A stretch of 35,232 nt of DNA. Origin: a virus. Its lineage: Duplodnaviria; Caudoviricetes. Under the pieces are notes generated by a model, which was given only the letters and a program-made list of their open reading frames with translations, was not told where the DNA came from and searched no databases. The position numbers were made by a program, and so were the translations under genes. This document shows positions 1 to 35,232 of this stretch, piece by piece; positions within the stretch are counted from its first letter, which is position 1, and each line of letters starts with the position of its first letter. The stretch lies in IMG/VR virus record IMGVR_UViG_3300048854_000041, positions 1-35,232 of that record; one strand, 5' to 3'.

Positions 1-45
1 ACCCGGGGTGCTATTACCCATTGGTCGTAAATCCAAGAAGGCAGC

Positions 46-13116: not shown

Positions 13117-13233
13117 TTAGGGTGGCCTCGGAAGGGTCGATTGAACTGCTCCGGCTCCATGCCGGGTCAGTTATCGCTTAGACATGGAAAGCCCGTGGCG
13201 GCTCCTGAAGTCAAGTTGGCTAGGCCACCCTAA
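13117..13233 (+). ncRNA. Structured intergenic RNA element with possible pseudoknot between portal and scaffold genes
   Basis: Perfect 12-bp closing helix TTAGGGTGGCCT/AGGCCACCCTAA, two inner arms, loop TCCAT complementary to ATGGA. Confidence 0.55.
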
Positions 13234-25853: not shown

Positions 25854-26035
25854 CGATACCTGTTTTACAAGACGGCTGGAATTTTGGCAGTTATACTTAA
25901 GTTGCACTGGGTGTTCTCCGTTACAGCGGATGAGCTTTGTGCGGAAGTCTCTGACAAGACAACCGCGACCAGTGCTAGTTATACATCAGTTGCGACTTAC
26001 TGCAACATATTTCTCTTACAACTTTCAGGTAACTA

Positions 26036-26060
26036 CCGCCTTTTCTGGGCGGCTTTCTAT
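26036..26060 (+). terminator. Terminator-like hairpin upstream of the second tail/receptor gene
   Basis: CCGCC/GGCGG stem followed by CTTTCTATTT. Confidence 0.35.
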
Positions 26061-26075
26061 TTCACAGGAGAAACA

Positions 26076-28316
26076 ATGACCCGACTACTCAGAGTAGCGG
26101 CTGTTCTGCTTTGCGCAGTCGGCCTCAGCGCTTCCGCCTCCACCATGACTGCCACGTTAACCGACACGGACGGCACGGCATGGGCAAATGCCACCTATAC
26201 CGCTGTCCTTACGCTTCAGGGGCAGCCAGGCGCGGTTCCTACGATTAGCGGAGTTCCTGTCTCTCCTTTGACCATAAGCAGCACTGCAAGCTCTTCAGGC
26301 GTGATTACCGGCACGTTTACCGACACCAGCACTCTCGACCAGAAGAACGGCCTTTGGGTGTTTACGATTACCCCGAATGCATCGGGCGCTCCGGTTGTCG
26401 TTTCGGTGGCTATCACCGGGTCCACGCCGAACCTCACAAATAACTTCTCAAGCCTCAAGGCTCCGCGCTTCCCGGCAGGACTTTCTGCTTATGGATATAC
26501 AGACGGCGAGGTAACTAATGTTGCACTTGGCGATTCCTATTTCAACGTAGTCACGCCGTGCCCCAAGACGTTTACGCAGGCAGGATGGCAGTGCGGTGGT
26601 GGTGGAAGCAGTGCACCTACGCTGGTAGCTGGATCTCAGATTCTATTCCTCCCTTATCTTCAAGGCTCGGGAACAGTCCTCACCGATCAGAGCCCAAATC
26701 ACAACGACTGCACGTTTGCAGCAGCCCTACAGGCTCCTACATGGAACAACACAGGCACCGGCCTACTCTTCAACGGCAATCAGCGCTGCACGATGCCTGC
26801 TGGTGCAATGACCGGAGCCAAGACGATTGAGCTTTGGGTTGCCCTCACCGAGCCGATGCTGCGAGAAGGAGCTCAGGCGGTCAATATGCTTGTCTCCGAT
26901 TTCGCCAATAACTATATCGGAACTCACGGCTCCACAAATGGCGGGATTGCCATGGGGAACGGGATCGGAACGGCTCAGACTGTCGGCATCGATCGCTATA
27001 TCGGAAACTCTCACTTTGCAGGAACTTATTCCGGTACGGTTGCCATTCACTACATTAATGGCCGCCAGACGCAGGGATACATCCAGAACGCCAACAACTG
27101 GCAATGGACGAATACAGGTGTTGCCGCTATCGGTGATGCGGCCAGTGCTCCCGCAAATGGTTGGGGCTCGCAGTTCGTTCTTTGGGGCATGGCCGTCTAT
27201 AACACGGTCCTGACACCCGCCCAGATTCAGCAGAATGATGCGGCGATGAAAGCGACACTTGCGACCAAAGGGGTCTACTTTCAGGACTTCGTTCCAGAAA
27301 ATGCCGCCCTATTTGTTGGCGACTCGCTCTGCGAAAACCTTGGTGGAAACTTTGCGCAGTTAACCTCTCCTTCTTACCTTGCTGCCCAGTCTGCGGGAGT
27401 CACGCAATACAGCAGTACTTGCTTATCGAGCCAGACGCAGGTAACTATCAACTCCCTGATCGCTACCCGCGAGTATCCCATCTTGGACGGCGCCGCTGGC
27501 GGCTATAAGATCGTCATAGACAACGCGGGCACAAATGACATTCGTGCCCTCAGTCTGACGGGTGCAGCTGCATTCGCCAATCTCCAAACGTACATCACAA
27601 CCCTTCGCGGTCGTTATCCGCTAATTCCTATCGTTGTCGGCACACTGGCACCTCGGGGCGACAATTCAGCGGCTCAGGAAGTGCAGCGCGAAGCCTTCAA
27701 CACTCTGCTGATTGGGGCATGGACAGGAGGTACGCTGGGAGTTGGTGTCAGCGTCAATGACGTCGCAAACAATCCGATTGTTGCAACCTTGGCGTCTCCA
27801 AACAACTACGCTCCGACAACGTTAGCGACCTGCAATAACACGGTTTACTTCATCTCGGATTGCATCCACTGGCGCCCAGCCACAACCGCGACGATGGGCA
27901 CCCAGTATGGAGCCGCAATTCTTGATGCACAGGGAAAGCTTAACAAGACTCACTGGATCAACCTGACTGTCCCCTTCCAAGTGTTGGCCACCTTCGCGAA
28001 CACAAGCCAGACTCTTCCGATCGTTCAGCTCGGTCCGACATGGCAGGTATGCGGCACAAAGATGACAGTGAGCACTCCTTTCGTAGGAACCAGCATCAGC
28101 GCTCTTGCGGTAACGCTGGGCGACTCGACAGGAACAGCAACGCAATATCTTGCCTCGCAGGACATGCTTACTGCCACCTCTACTCGTTCTCCAAGCAGTT
28201 CCTTTGTCAGTAATCATGGAATCGTTCAGGCGGCTTTCTCTGCTACAGGCGCGAACTTCAGCGCTCTGACGGCGGGAAGTCTTAGCGTGGACGTCTGTGT
28301 AATTGCTGCTCCGTAA
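26076..28316 (+). CDS. Signal-peptide protein with LamG/ConA-like lectin and SGNH hydrolase domains (receptor-binding/esterase)
   Basis: AGGAG RBS at ATG 26076; MTRLLRVAAVLLCAVGLSASA; TIELWV..HFAGTY..YING..AVYN.VLT.AQI (LamG); FVGDSL, NAGTND, DCIH (SGNH). Confidence 0.75.
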   Translation: MTRLLRVAAVLLCAVGLSASASTMTATLTDTDGTAWANATYTAVLTLQGQPGAVPTISGVPVSPLTISSTASSSGVITGTFTDTSTLDQKNGLWVFTITPNASGAPVVVSVAITGSTPNLTNNFSSLKAPRFPAGLSAYGYTDGEVTNVALGDSYFNVVTPCPKTFTQAGWQCGGGGSSAPTLVAGSQILFLPYLQGSGTVLTDQSPNHNDCTFAAALQAPTWNNTGTGLLFNGNQRCTMPAGAMTGAKTIELWVALTEPMLREGAQAVNMLVSDFANNYIGTHGSTNGGIAMGNGIGTAQTVGIDRYIGNSHFAGTYSGTVAIHYINGRQTQGYIQNANNWQWTNTGVAAIGDAASAPANGWGSQFVLWGMAVYNTVLTPAQIQQNDAAMKATLATKGVYFQDFVPENAALFVGDSLCENLGGNFAQLTSPSYLAAQSAGVTQYSSTCLSSQTQVTINSLIATREYPILDGAAGGYKIVIDNAGTNDIRALSLTGAAAFANLQTYITTLRGRYPLIPIVVGTLAPRGDNSAAQEVQREAFNTLLIGAWTGGTLGVGVSVNDVANNPIVATLASPNNYAPTTLATCNNTVYFISDCIHWRPATTATMGTQYGAAILDAQGKLNKTHWINLTVPFQVLATFANTSQTLPIVQLGPTWQVCGTKMTVSTPFVGTSISALAVTLGDSTGTATQYLASQDMLTATSTRSPSSSFVSNHGIVQAAFSATGANFSALTAGSLSVDVCVIAAP

Positions 28317-28471: not shown

Positions 28472-29536
28472 ATGTCAAAAGCCGTCACTAGGAGACTCCC
28501 CTTGGCCACTACGCAGCCGTTATCTGCTGATAAAGTGCAACAGATTAAAGACTTAGTCGCTGAAGGAAAGCTAAAACGTGATGAGATTGCAAGGCTTTTG
28601 GGCGTTGGACAGGGAACGGTAAGCAAGTACAAGAATCAACTGAATACGCCGGCAGTCGTTGCAGACAAGAAGGTCGGAGAGTTTGACTGGCGCGAGTGGG
28701 CAGAATGGGCCAAGCAGGGACAGAAGCTCAAGAAGAAGGCGTCCTTCTCGCAGGAAGAGGCCACCTTCACTCTAGGAGACGGCACCTCTCCTATTATCCT
28801 TGCCACGTTCTCCGATCAGCACATTGGTTCATGGGGAGCGGACTATGACCTGTTTACGCAGATCACCAAGGAAATCGTAGAGACGCCCAATCTCTACATG
28901 GTCATGCTGGGAGATGAGACAGAGCACGCCATCAAGCTCCGCAGCGTGCTAGAGGTTTGCAGCCAGATCTTCGCACCTGAAATTCAGGAGCAGTTCATCG
29001 AAGCATGGGCCAAGGAAGTAAACCACAAGATCGCCTGGTCGGGATGGTCGAATCACGGCATCGAGCGAGGAGAGAAGCAGGCTGGCTCGAGCGTGCTCAA
29101 GAACATCCTCTCCCGCCAAGCTACCTACTTCAACGGCTTGGCTCATGTCACCATCAATGTCGGCACGCAGCAGTACAAGGTAGCCAGCAACCACAAGTTC
29201 CGCGGCAATTCGATGTACAGCCGGGTACAGGGTCCAAAGCGTTATATCCGCATGGAAGCTCCAGACCGAGACATTGTTCTCCAGGGCGATCTCCATACTC
29301 CCGAACTGGACGTTTACTACGAGGGCGGCATGCAGCACGTTGCCATCACTACCGGCACGCTTCATCTCAATTCTGGATATGCCAAGCGGTACTTCAGCCT
29401 TATGACTATACCCGCCTATCCATGCGTAGTTCTTGACCCCCACACCCACCAGAAGACTCCCTTCTGGACCATTGGAGAGGCTGTGGCCTACGTAGAGGGC
29501 TGGAAGGCGCAGCGAGGTGAATATGTTGCAGCCTAA
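28472..29536 (+). CDS. Calcineurin-like metallophosphoesterase with N-terminal HTH
   Basis: SDQHIG, LGD, SNH, NH, GDLH metal motifs; EIARLLGVGQGTVSKY helix-turn-helix. Confidence 0.8.
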   Translation: MSKAVTRRLPLATTQPLSADKVQQIKDLVAEGKLKRDEIARLLGVGQGTVSKYKNQLNTPAVVADKKVGEFDWREWAEWAKQGQKLKKKASFSQEEATFTLGDGTSPIILATFSDQHIGSWGADYDLFTQITKEIVETPNLYMVMLGDETEHAIKLRSVLEVCSQIFAPEIQEQFIEAWAKEVNHKIAWSGWSNHGIERGEKQAGSSVLKNILSRQATYFNGLAHVTINVGTQQYKVASNHKFRGNSMYSRVQGPKRYIRMEAPDRDIVLQGDLHTPELDVYYEGGMQHVAITTGTLHLNSGYAKRYFSLMTIPAYPCVVLDPHTHQKTPFWTIGEAVAYVEGWKAQRGEYVAA

Positions 29537-33084: not shown

Positions 33085-34181
33085 TTGCCCTCCCTCAGCT
33101 TCTCTTCCAACTCAGCGATCTTGGCGCGGGAATCTCGCAACTCTCGCACTACCTCATAAACCTCATCTCCGGGAACCTTCCACCACTTCGTCTCATCGAT
33201 CATTCCTTCGAGGCGCTTGTCGGATATTTGGCCCTTAGTGTAGGCGTAGAACTCAGGTCCGCGATGTGATGCCGCAACTACTGCCTCCAGTTCAGCGATC
33301 TTTTGTAGCAGAGGGGACTGAGCGGCCATGTAGCCAGCATGAAAACAGTTATAGGGCCACGTGGAACCGGGACCGCCGATTGTCACCTTTGGCTGAAACT
33401 CTTTCCACGCTGCCTCAAATCCCTCAGTTGGTTTGGGTTCACGTTGCTCTGCAATTTCATCAATCAGCCTCTCAAGTTCCAAGGAAAGGTATTTGGTATC
33501 TGTATCTCCTCCTAGCTGCTCAATCCAATCCCGTATATTGCCTTCATAATCTCGACAATCTACGCAAACGTCCTTATCCCCCTGCGCTGTGGCGGGTTCG
33601 GGTTCCATACTGCGAACTTTCCATGCAAACCAAGCTGCCGCCCTATGTGATCCTTCGAGTTCGAACATCTTCGATCCGCGCTCGGCCCATACCTTAGCAA
33701 ATGCCTCGCGCTCTCTATCCCCTTGCATTGTGGCGGGTTGCAACTCTGGCGGAATCATCTGCGGCGCTGTTGTGTCGATAAAAGCGGGAGCGGGAGCATC
33801 GAGATGAATGTTCGCTTGCCGCGCTAGGTCTCGCATAATTGCCGCGTCAGACGGTCCACATGCTGCTATGAACTCTTCAAGGCCCTTCTTTTGGTCTGCT
33901 ACGGGCACACCACCGCGAGTTACGATCAACGGCGATACTGTTGGCGGAATGTCAGGCTCCGCGCACCCACAATCCGACGAGCAGCATAGGCAGCCTTGGC
34001 AAATCCAAGCGCCACAAGAACATTTTCTCTGGGTAGGCTCATCCTGCCCTGTTGTGTCGATAGGGGATGGGGTGGGAGCGGATTCAAGAGGTGGGCAATC
34101 GCCACACAATAGGACCTCGGTATCCCAGAGTCTGGGGCAATCGGTGCAACGATCATGCGTTTCTGTTTTCTGCTCTGTCAT
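33081..34181 (-). CDS. Mosaic early-left hypothetical protein (Cys-rich segments, coiled coils)
   Basis: Long ORF; repeated IDTT/EPATxQGD linkers and KIAELE motifs. Confidence 0.65.
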   Translation of the reverse strand: MTEQKTETHDRCTDCPRLWDTEVLLCGDCPPLESAPTPSPIDTTGQDEPTQRKCSCGAWICQGCLCCSSDCGCAEPDIPPTVSPLIVTRGGVPVADQKKGLEEFIAACGPSDAAIMRDLARQANIHLDAPAPAFIDTTAPQMIPPELQPATMQGDREREAFAKVWAERGSKMFELEGSHRAAAWFAWKVRSMEPEPATAQGDKDVCVDCRDYEGNIRDWIEQLGGDTDTKYLSLELERLIDEIAEQREPKPTEGFEAAWKEFQPKVTIGGPGSTWPYNCFHAGYMAAQSPLLQKIAELEAVVAASHRGPEFYAYTKGQISDKRLEGMIDETKWWKVPGDEVYEVVRELRDSRAKIAELEEKLREGK

Positions 34182-34185
34182 ATCC

Positions 34186-34842
34186 CTACTCTCCCGTAAC
34201 CGCTGCTTTGATCCTGTCGTGTACTCTCATGGCCCAGTTAGGGCGGCCCTCGTCGTCGATGTCTACGCGGTCGTAGGCTTCATCCTGAATCTCTATAAGC
34301 AGATCTCGTAGCCGCTCCTTACCCTCTAGAGAAGCCTCTTTAGTCGCACGGGAGTAATCAATCCACTCTTTGCGGCTGCGCCATAGCATGTCCCACGTTA
34401 TTTCCTCGTTGCCATTTAGCGGCTTCGGTTCATTTAGGCTGCGTCCATCGCCGGACTCGACCTTGGCAGGCTCGACCCACGGCACAAACTGATGACGAAC
34501 AGGTTCATCATGGAACCAAGCAATGCCCGCGAAATATCCCTTGGCCCCGCAGTGCTTACAAACCGAACGCTTGCACTTCTCCCCATCTTTGGGGGCAGGC
34601 TCTACCTTGTGTAGCGGGTTGTAACAAGGGGTGCCGCAGATTTTACATGCCTTCTCTTCTGAGGCAGGTAGCTTTCTGGCAGCGTCTTCCCAGCTATCGC
34701 CCAGATAATACTCAGTCTCAGTGGGATGTATTGCGGGTACAAGACCAGCCTCAATGAATCCCACCTTGGATGTCCAAACTCTTCCGCTGAATGGTTGATA
34801 CGCATTTGGATGTACCTTCAAAACCTGTTCTTTGCTTGTCAT
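34186..34842 (-). CDS. Hypothetical early-left protein
   Basis: GAGG RBS; two CxxC motifs. Confidence 0.6.
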   Translation of the reverse strand: MTSKEQVLKVHPNAYQPFSGRVWTSKVGFIEAGLVPAIHPTETEYYLGDSWEDAARKLPASEEKACKICGTPCYNPLHKVEPAPKDGEKCKRSVCKHCGAKGYFAGIAWFHDEPVRHQFVPWVEPAKVESGDGRSLNEPKPLNGNEEITWDMLWRSRKEWIDYSRATKEASLEGKERLRDLLIEIQDEAYDRVDIDDEGRPNWAMRVHDRIKAAVTGE

Positions 34843-34872
34843 AATCCTCTGCTCCTCCCTTGCGATAGATTC

Positions 34873-34982
34873 TGGTGCTGCATTCTGAACAGGGTTCGAA
34901 CCTGTACGGTACGTCTACCACCGGGTTCAGGACCGTCGTCCATCCGCCAGCGCGTATGCCAGTTTCGCCATCAGAATGCAGC
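34873..34982 (-). ncRNA. tRNA-like RNA (Leu-type body) with 12-bp acceptor stem and no anticodon loop
   Basis: GCTGCATTCTGA TG GCGAAACTGGCATACGC G CTGG-CGGATGGAC-GACG-GTCCTGAAC-CCGG T GGTA-GACG-TACC GT ACAGG-TTCGAAC-CCTGT TCAGAATGCAGC ACCA. Confidence 0.8.
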
Positions 34983-35232
34983 CCACAATCTACTAAGCCA
35001 TTGCGATATAGGTGGACTAAACCCTAACCAATCTCATCGGCAATTCATCCTCAGCAAGGTATTTCCAGCAATCGCAATTTGTCTCAGCCACCTAGCCTTC
35101 TCCTAGTTTCTGTTGGGATTCAGCCCTGGGAAGACTGTATGCAACTGGAACTAACTGAAGCACCTTTTCTGCATCGTCAAACTTTCCAGCCATTGTGAAT
35201 ACTGCCGATAGCAACCTGAATGCGTCTCTCTG

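Follow-up and report, generated by a model that had tools for sequence, protein, structure and literature searches.

The described RNAs closest to the tRNA-like cargo considered here are RNA1 and RNA2 of phage T5 and rnaC and rnaD of T4. Concerning the release of an RNA from a longer transcript, the systems relevant for comparison are the RNase III processing stems, such as the rRNA leader-trailer helices and the T7 early sites, and the C4 RNA of P1/P7, together with the C4-like antisense CI RNA of P4. T5 RNA1 and RNA2 (misc_RNA T5s03 and T5s06 of NC_005859, annotated as 'tRNA-like stable RNA with unknown functions') have a tRNA body with a T arm and with a long arm replacing the anticodon arm, a 7–9-bp acceptor and a location in the tRNA cluster of a large lytic phage; RNA1 has also a Leu-type D arm. 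T5 RNAIII and RNA2H have closing helices of about 12 bp round non-tRNA interiors. C4 is a small temperate-phage RNA with a closing stem and a variable interior, which is cut by RNase P from a longer transcript (PMC5320573). The RNase III stems are irregular leader-trailer helices formed round an RNA for its release, with a size of about two turns (PMC1540722).

The DNA analyzed here (hereafter, the window) is the whole stretch of 35,232 nt of one virus record, with a P22-like temperate gene layout. A PHROGs scan of 48 ORFs found, on the plus strand, a replication initiator, terminase, portal, capsid, head-closure and ejection genes and an integrase, 3′ of which the right end is a block of minus-strand ORFs. 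The host is likely acidobacterial, because the one named terminase relative (85% identity) belongs to a Terracidiphilus MAG; 251 Terriglobia-class genomes searched at 1e-60 contained no close terminase, nor did the genome contigs searched. Homology searches with the integrase led to one locus and those with a 63-aa ORF to two loci, and two soil DNA runs, possibly the source of the window, have contigs with exactly the letters of the element studied. Elsewhere in the window, positions 25884–28316 encode a laminin-G plus GDSL-esterase tail-region protein, and positions 28472–29536 an HTH plus DNA-repair-exonuclease-like protein. Positions 33575–34079, within a 366-aa ORF, contain two direct-repeat pairs (34 and 24 nt) that code for recurring linker peptides; it is at these repeat points that related soil contigs are joined, which suggests domain shuffling.

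The tRNA-like element is intergenic: upstream of it is the stop codon of an ORF truncated at the contig end, and downstream the start codon at 34842. In the 5′ to 3′ direction of the minus strand, the features of the cassette and its surroundings are the following:

35092–35232, minus strand: ORF upstream of the cassette, 3′ end only (46 aa visible, cut by the contig end, no Pfam match)
35001–35008, minus strand: upstream member of a pair of 8-nt direct repeats on either side of the cassette (inverted 7-nt copy at 35071–35077)
34983–34993, minus strand: leader strand of the clamp (positions −11 to −1), pairing with CCA and trailer, common to phage G046
34971–34982, minus strand: 5′ strand of the 12-bp closing/acceptor helix, first 9 nt common to G046
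34952–34970, minus strand: U8-G9 and Leu-type D arm (A14, A15, G18G19), 1 nt off acidobacterial tRNA-Leu D arms
34921–34950, minus strand: long arm standing where the anticodon arm would be (two 4-bp stems separated by a symmetric 5×5 loop, GACG end loop)
34906–34919, minus strand: variable arm and G-U48 linker (4 bp, GACG loop; A15.U48 possible)
34889–34905, minus strand: canonical T arm (5 bp, 7-nt loop)
34877–34888, minus strand: 3′ strand of the 12-bp helix, matching the E. coli RNase III proximal box at 4/4 positions
34873–34876, minus strand: ACCA, the A bulged and the CCA predicted to be paired to the leader in the precursor
34865–34872, minus strand: clamp strand on the trailer side (7 pairs after a G.G mismatch), where a compensatory change falls
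34860–34867, minus strand: downstream copy of the 8-nt direct repeat, between trailer and ribosome-binding site
34846–34859, minus strand: purine-rich, Shine-Dalgarno-like region, from the sequence
34186–34842, minus strand: 218-aa ORF downstream of the cassette (no Pfam or PHROG match; a weak homologue, 29%, lies 3′ of the G046 cassette)

The neighbour genes point to no target protein in the PHROG and Pfam scans. No sigma-70 promoter of the cassette's own was called upstream, and a TAnnnT hexamer found in the leader belongs to the helix.

The first-pass annotation of this DNA had described a 110-nt tRNA mimic on the minus strand, and the sequence from 34982 to 34873 agrees with it in every arm and in the ACCA end. 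The 12-nt arms 34971–34982 and 34877–34888 are 100% complementary, in accordance with the perfect 12-bp helix that it had reported. Among the perfect 12-bp inverted repeats with arms 40–114 nt apart, the window contains one other, without NCCA, at 13117–13233 in the gap between the portal and scaffold genes. The D stem has 3 bp and an 11-nt loop, and the acceptor branch comprises 12 + 5 = 17 bp up to the encoded ACCA; a 7/5 branch ending in NCCA is absent, and 12/5 is found instead. The core has U8, A14, A15.U48, G18G19, U54-A58 and A73. These are the E. coli tRNA-Leu identity elements listed in PMC6614811, so the Leu core identity set of the tRNA-like body is complete at the level of sequence. 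The acceptor, the T stem and the variable arm are wholly unlike those of host tRNA-Leu; nevertheless, all four internal stems are paired.

ARAGORN run with default settings on the window called 0 genes, so that it missed the element, as had been expected, and gave no other tRNA gene. The covariance search proposed beforehand had a divided outcome: the Rfam scan of the whole window gave 0 matches at E ≤ 1, and a 533-nt stretch scanned with laxer filters gave RF00005 (tRNA) with 31.4 bits (gathering 29) at 34881–34977. The RF00005 alignment has a 7-bp acceptor and a 22-nt insert in the anticodon loop, which bears out the replacement of that loop by a long arm; a 7-nt loop with U33 and a purine at 37 is absent. 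The first-pass annotation had named as a possible refutation the splicing of the insert to give a 7-nt loop. A single excision restored a U33 loop in 0 of 8 prefix-suffix joins in the register of a 5-bp stem, and an alternative register inspected by eye also failed; an intron-containing tRNA is thereby ruled out over the two registers. As had been claimed, the element would be unable to decode: with the Leu core intact and with no excision tried yielding a U33 loop, the anatomy supports the view that a tRNA body lacking the anticodon loop is non-decoding. A tmRNA was rejected with both ARAGORN and Rfam negative, and an attP site was rejected as well, the 3′ half being unlike host tRNA-Leu and the integrase lying 2.9 kb away.

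In the 5×5 loop of the long arm, GGA stands opposite GAA, with C.C and U.U on either side. Such a GGA/GAA loop could give three sheared G.A pairs. A K-turn needs an asymmetric loop with a 3-nt bulge, and a K-turn or box C/D identity was discarded for the long arm, as its loop is symmetric and lacks this bulge; the weak snoRNA matches, below gathering, arise because the arm has CUGA opposite GAUG. Folding of the 110-mer gave −45.2 kcal/mol (z −3.25, beating 199 of 200 shuffles), with −42.4 for the cloverleaf as drawn. In the 2D ensemble the pair probabilities were low for the D stem (0.02–0.03) and the T stem (0.15–0.18). The interior 34889–34970 alone (z +0.57) and the long arm alone (z −0.97) were no better than shuffles, and the stability of the 110-mer is therefore the contribution of its closing helix. 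The argument that intact pairing speaks against decay holds in what concerns the pairing itself, but it is not backed by these statistics.

The first clue to the nature of the outer helix was a contig in soil run X1 that matched only the 3′ end of the element and diverged at 34885. The search with this 3′ end gave 41 viral matches, of which a single one was real, L320, located in the complete 43.5-kb phage G046. This phage differs from the window phage in its terminase and has just a few of the same early genes, two of them 3′ of the cassette. The G046 cassette (L320:3004–3075, minus strand; G046:C1 14906–14977) specifies a 72-nt RNA with two hairpins, a 10-bp closing helix and ACCA, with neither D nor T arm and without any Rfam match. 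The 50 letters of its interior are unrelated to the window interior (local alignment p = 0.87), and this cargo is structured by itself (z −2.99). On the contrary, the clamp is identical to that of the window in 19 of 20 letters at the left end and in 20 of 21 at the right end, and the one difference per side makes one compensatory pair (window A-U, G046 G-C). Out of 16 frame pairs scored, 15 were invariant and one was changed on both sides, all being paired, while slid registers were 25–47% paired. With two sequences the shuffle control of pair conservation is uninformative (249 of 500 shuffles reach the score); by simple arithmetic, two random changes in 20-nt flanks would meet in one still-paired pair about once in 60 cases.

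The predicted helix runs beyond the ACCA: G-1, G-2 and U-3 pair with C, C and A, the A of the discriminator position is bulged, and a G.G mismatch is followed by 7 further pairs in the window (7–8 over the two phages), giving an outer helix of 22 pairs over 23–24 positions in the window and of 21 over 22 in G046. In folding with flanks, the CCA is predicted to be paired in the precursor with a probability >0.99, and the z values reach −5.22 for the window and −6.29 for G046, with 0 of 200 shuffles as good. The conservation of the flanks can be understood because they extend the helix and pair the CCA, and the structured unit would be 34865–34993, larger than the 110 nt. The bulged A and the G.G mismatch are identical in both phages, the bulge is placed exactly at discriminator-CCA, and there is one copy per genome. 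Both the window and G046 have G.U pairs on the gene-sense strand, and therefore an RNA of that strand is favoured; folding of the opposite strand as DNA gave z −4.39. A pairing of the T loop with the first codons was predicted in the window, and no counterpart was seen in G046.

From the comparison of these sequences, 9 of the 12 'acceptor' pairs belong to a frame common to a non-tRNA RNA and 3 to the cargo. The two full frames show frame and cargo to be separable modules: the tRNA body is an exchangeable cargo, because the same clamp encloses in G046 an RNA without D or T arm. So, what had been taken for a 12-bp acceptor stem is right as to the pairs and wrong as to their being a tRNA-specific extension. 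In the same way, the statement that the element keeps its CCA would apply only after processing and not to the precursor, and the idea of a processing signal, put forward among others in the first-pass annotation, gains support from the frame. In both phages the cassette lies 30 nt 5′ of a start codon, and each has a phage-specific repeat at about −25 and just behind the trailer, with two direct copies in the window and, in G046, three copies near the cassette and four in all. In G046, a 10-nt motif is present four times, three of them directly 5′ of ribosome-binding sites.

Concerning relatives of the cargo, blastn matched 24 phage records, with 31 nt as the longest match and no long one in 50,697 phage records, and 8 plasmid records, with no relative among them. 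A one-sequence covariance model, which does detect host tRNA-Leu in 2 of 3 Acidobacteriota genomes, gave 0 matches in the 45 of 55 related viral records covered, and 0 of the 4 near-complete ones had a match. The homolog and covariation search suggested at the outset yielded then no cargo relative and, for the frame, one compensatory pair from two sequences only. Pattern scans for D arms and T arms found at least 119 and 59 viral stretches, about 160 being the estimate. Among the top-ranked elements listed out of 112 distinct ones, the window included, 12 Watson-Crick pairs followed by NCCA occur in the window only, and the window ranks 6th in leader-trailer folding energy among 111 D/T-arm viral elements. 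Recurrent viral families with a Leu-type D arm and a T arm (L005, L006/L007/L009/L011, L004, L041/L052/L083 and others) have 7–8-bp acceptors and aberrant middles of 44–63 nt; elements of the L006/L007 family recur across many contigs, with a middle that, inspected by eye, may hold a pseudoknot. L135, L139, L173, L162 and L188 have a T arm and half an acceptor ending in a similar 3′ octamer, which in the first three is directly 5′ of a ribosome-binding site and ATG.

Concerning relatives of the frame, one scan gave 70 viral matches, with only L138 having a matching 5′ strand in register. Other scans gave 46 viral, 83 metagenome and 105 genome matches, and of 158 distinct ones only L364 (= L320) had the full outer helix. 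In Terriglobia-class genomes, 42 matches were found in 39 of 401 at 2 mismatches, below the backwards control; the 30 matches examined had no closing helix over 8 bp, and the outer frame was present in 0 of 401. Altogether, the full frames found in all scans were two, those of the window and G046. In L138, from a GC-rich phage, the same outer six pairs surround an ARAGORN-callable tRNA-Leu(CAG) whose anticodon loop is normal; ACAA takes the place of ACCA and faces G-1 and U-2; such pairs can therefore be mere precursor flanks, and the refuting possibility that homologs are ordinary tRNA-Leu genes is partly touched by this case. The L138 gene (L138:3002–3110, minus strand) has a 14-position acceptor-side helix and a TATAAT hexamer 7 nt upstream, with early genes on one side and a convergent lysis cassette on the other. 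The terminase relative G010 repeats the 11-nt leader strand letter for letter, which happens nowhere else in the 588,813 nt of the 24 related records or pieces; there the strand belongs to an extended leader-trailer helix of about 20 pairs round a tRNA-Cys(GCA). This tRNA (L639:21–96 with flanks; G010:C1 about 39965–40130) has two anticodon-stem mismatches and is antisense to the neighbouring genes; its 3′ strand differs, so that a kinship of the G010 sequence to the clamp is uncertain. In G451 a homologue of the downstream gene is present without the cassette, which is therefore dispensable; its absence from G451 and from the 24 related records or pieces makes its presence patchy. Finally, clamping of the CCA as such is not unique to the window phage, because the leaders of two other phages, L018 (1490–1610, plus strand) and L111, clamp the CCA of anticodon-less Leu-type bodies that ARAGORN misses and that have a ribosome-binding site and ATG directly 3′ of the body.

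With respect to processing, the RNase III substrates of E. coli have a helix of two helical turns, and the frame of 22 pairs in the window and 21 in G046 matches the size quoted in PMC1540722. The box geometry, partly deduced from the text of that source, was applied with E. coli rules, which may not be those of the host: a cut at −6/−5 has 3/4 proximal positions, a cut at +1 has 3/6 box positions, and the only 4/4 proximal box, which both phages have, would place the cut close to where the helix ends on the inner side, the distal box scoring 0/2. A cut at this last position would excise the cargo rather than mature it. Natural RNase III sites often miss the consensus (PMC5371410). As to RNase P, RCCA pairs with the RNase P RNA, and CCA-guided cuts take place in non-tRNA helices, e.g. 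pre-4.5S (PMC11143913), C4 RNA being a precedent for processing by this enzyme (PMC5320573). The element has G+1 and RCCA, with the CCA predicted to be paired in the precursor, and a buried CCA must first be freed, because RNase P needs RCCA for base pairing with its own RNA. A second guide of the enzyme is a distance of 12 bp counted from the T loop (PMC11143913), and by this ruler the cut would therefore fall at +6, not at +1, which is the main alternative.

Taking these data together, the reading that we favour, with a probability of roughly 0.45, is that the frame could be a processing clamp, opened by RNase III and then by RNase P plus trimming, that would release a stable, CCA-ended decoy with a tRNA elbow. 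Starting from frame and cargo as separable modules, the frame is predicted to form about two helical turns in the primary early transcript and to hide the CCA. A double-strand cut, most plausibly by RNase III, would loosen the outer helix; RNase P could then cut at G+1 by means of the freed RCCA, exonucleases would trim the trailer to CCA, and processing might also free the 5′ end of the downstream mRNA beside its ribosome-binding site. The product, with a 17-bp acceptor branch and no anticodon loop, would neither decode nor be cut at the anticodon, and its branch would be too long for EF-Tu and probably for LeuRS. The most speculative step is that it may bind and titrate a host protein that reads elbow or CCA, for instance a tRNA-attacking defence enzyme. 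EF-Tu reads 12 bp of acceptor branch (PMC5389517), and the 13-bp branch of tRNA-Sec is the longest given in PMC7609411; a long branch plus a Leu core fits, as far as the sequence goes, a ligand bound at the elbow yet not used. Phage tRNAs that defeat tRNA-cutting defences have been published (PMC11555353, PMC11464382), and those described there are working tRNAs, unlike the anticodon-less element of the window. Against the clamp and decoy stand the number of full frames (two) and of cargo relatives (0), the z of +0.57 of the interior, the poor fit to the E. coli RNase III boxes, the T-loop ruler leading to +6, the ordinary tRNA within related pairs in L138, and G451 doing without the cassette.

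The same frame could instead be a cis-acting processing handle that cuts the early transcript and sets the 5′ end of the downstream mRNA, its stability or its translation, any stable fold serving as cargo and the released RNA having no job. This comes close to the favoured reading, although it is on the unlikely side, and is the foremost of the alternatives. The exchangeable cargo, the start codon 30 nt 3′ of the cassette in either phage and the repeat between trailer and ribosome-binding site, and the clamped CCA before ribosome-binding site and ATG in L018 and L111 are in agreement with it; however, a plain stem would do for that purpose and the full Leu D/T tertiary set costs 80 nt, the homologous gene of G451 has no cassette, and the Shine-Dalgarno region stays outside the frame helix. 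It is rather improbable that the element is a degenerate tRNA-Leu in precursor flanks, in which the outer five pairs would be an ordinary leader-trailer helix, RNase P would cut at +6 leaving a 7/5 body with G73, and the anticodon arm would be what is left after decay or recent scrambling, carried along by the frame. Rfam does align a 7-bp acceptor at 34881–34977, the interior folds no better than shuffles, L138 and G010 have tRNAs within the same or a related helix, and many viral D/T-arm elements have odd middles. But the inner 7-bp stem would start with A1-U72 and lose the encoded CCA, the four internal stems remain paired despite acceptor, T stem and variable arm so different from host tRNA-Leu, and G046 keeps ACCA at the end of the outer helix without any inner tRNA.

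An antisense immunity RNA of the C4/CI type would be matured by RNase P and would silence an operon by pairing of its loops with the repeats, the cargo then defining the immunity type. The layout resembles that of C4 in the closing stem, the processing by RNase P and targets beside a ribosome-binding site (PMC5320573), and each phage has its own repeat on both sides of the cassette. Nevertheless, 10 of 10 duplex tests between interior and flanks fell within the range of shuffled flanks (p 0.07–0.93), own flanks being no better than those of the other phage, and neither the window RNA nor the G046 RNA matches C4 in Rfam, so that we consider this reading very improbable. Hardly more credit, indeed slightly less, is given to an inverted repeat acting at the DNA level, as the ends of a miniature mobile element or as a single-strand recombination hairpin with captured inserts, with an incidental RNA fold. 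Its patchy presence, the flanking direct repeats and the folding of the opposite strand are what such an element could show. Against it speak its occurrence once per genome, the same asymmetries in both phages (the bulged A and the G.G), the bulge exactly at discriminator-CCA and the G.U pairs favouring the sense RNA. Integron attC sites have ends in AAC/GTT order, which the cassette lacks.

Returning to the clamp and decoy, a broader version would make the frame a portable clamp of soil temperate phages, a common CCA-ended helix for unrelated cargo, holding in this case a purpose-built decoy within an RNA-only anti-defence hotspot; we consider it a doubtful extension, a little below the cis-acting handle in probability. 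According to it, a decoy with a 17-bp branch, uncharged, undelivered and uncut at an anticodon, might soak up a tRNA-reading defence enzyme. Annotations still assign no function to the 'tRNA-like stable RNAs' of T5 (RNA1/RNA2) and of T4 (species 1 and 2). The phages compared here offer a natural swap experiment, with the frame holding tRNA-like cargo, holding non-tRNA cargo, or absent, and this comparison, with a cassette of 130 nt, separates a processing role in cis from a role in trans. If the frame were a general cut-out clamp, gene finders would be overlooking a class of phage small RNAs, and it could be a compact means to express CCA-ended RNAs. A search of largely open-access literature gave no description of the frame or of a 12/5 tRNA mimic.

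Concerning the comparison with known systems, the allo-tRNAs of Acidobacteria are non-canonical tRNA shapes from soil, some of them inactive in translation, and have a 12-bp branch (8/4 or 9/3), a Sec-like D stem with a tetraloop and an anticodon (PMC5389517). The window element differs by its 12/5 branch, Leu D arm and lack of an anticodon, and was ruled out as a member by its 17-bp branch and its 3-bp D stem with an 11-nt loop. YrlA, a Y RNA, is non-decoding and presents a tRNA elbow, but it is permuted (T before D), with a loop-closed acceptor, a GNCGAA Ro-binding motif and an adjoining Ro60 gene (PMC4201824); its membership was rejected with the D-to-T order of the element, the absence of an Rfam match and no Ro60 among the 48 ORFs, in a contig that ends 250 nt upstream. 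The G046 72-nt RNA is near C4 in size (77 nt). The window element, unlike C4, has a tRNA D/T core, and C4/CI membership was discarded for lack of an Rfam match and of complementarity between loops and flanks (10 of 10 duplex tests). With the RNase III stems it has in common an irregular leader-trailer helix of about two turns round an RNA for release; in contrast to them, the frame itself bears the CCA end, and the E. coli box rules are only partly obeyed. With respect to T5 RNA1/RNA2, neither homology (50,697 phage records) nor a tRNA-cluster location (window) was found, and there is no sequence in common. The trait typical of these RNAs, a tRNA body with a long non-canonical anticodon arm, is present, as is the Leu-type D arm of RNA1, and the window element combines it with a lone cassette in a small temperate phage, a 12-bp stem and a CCA clamped by a conserved frame.
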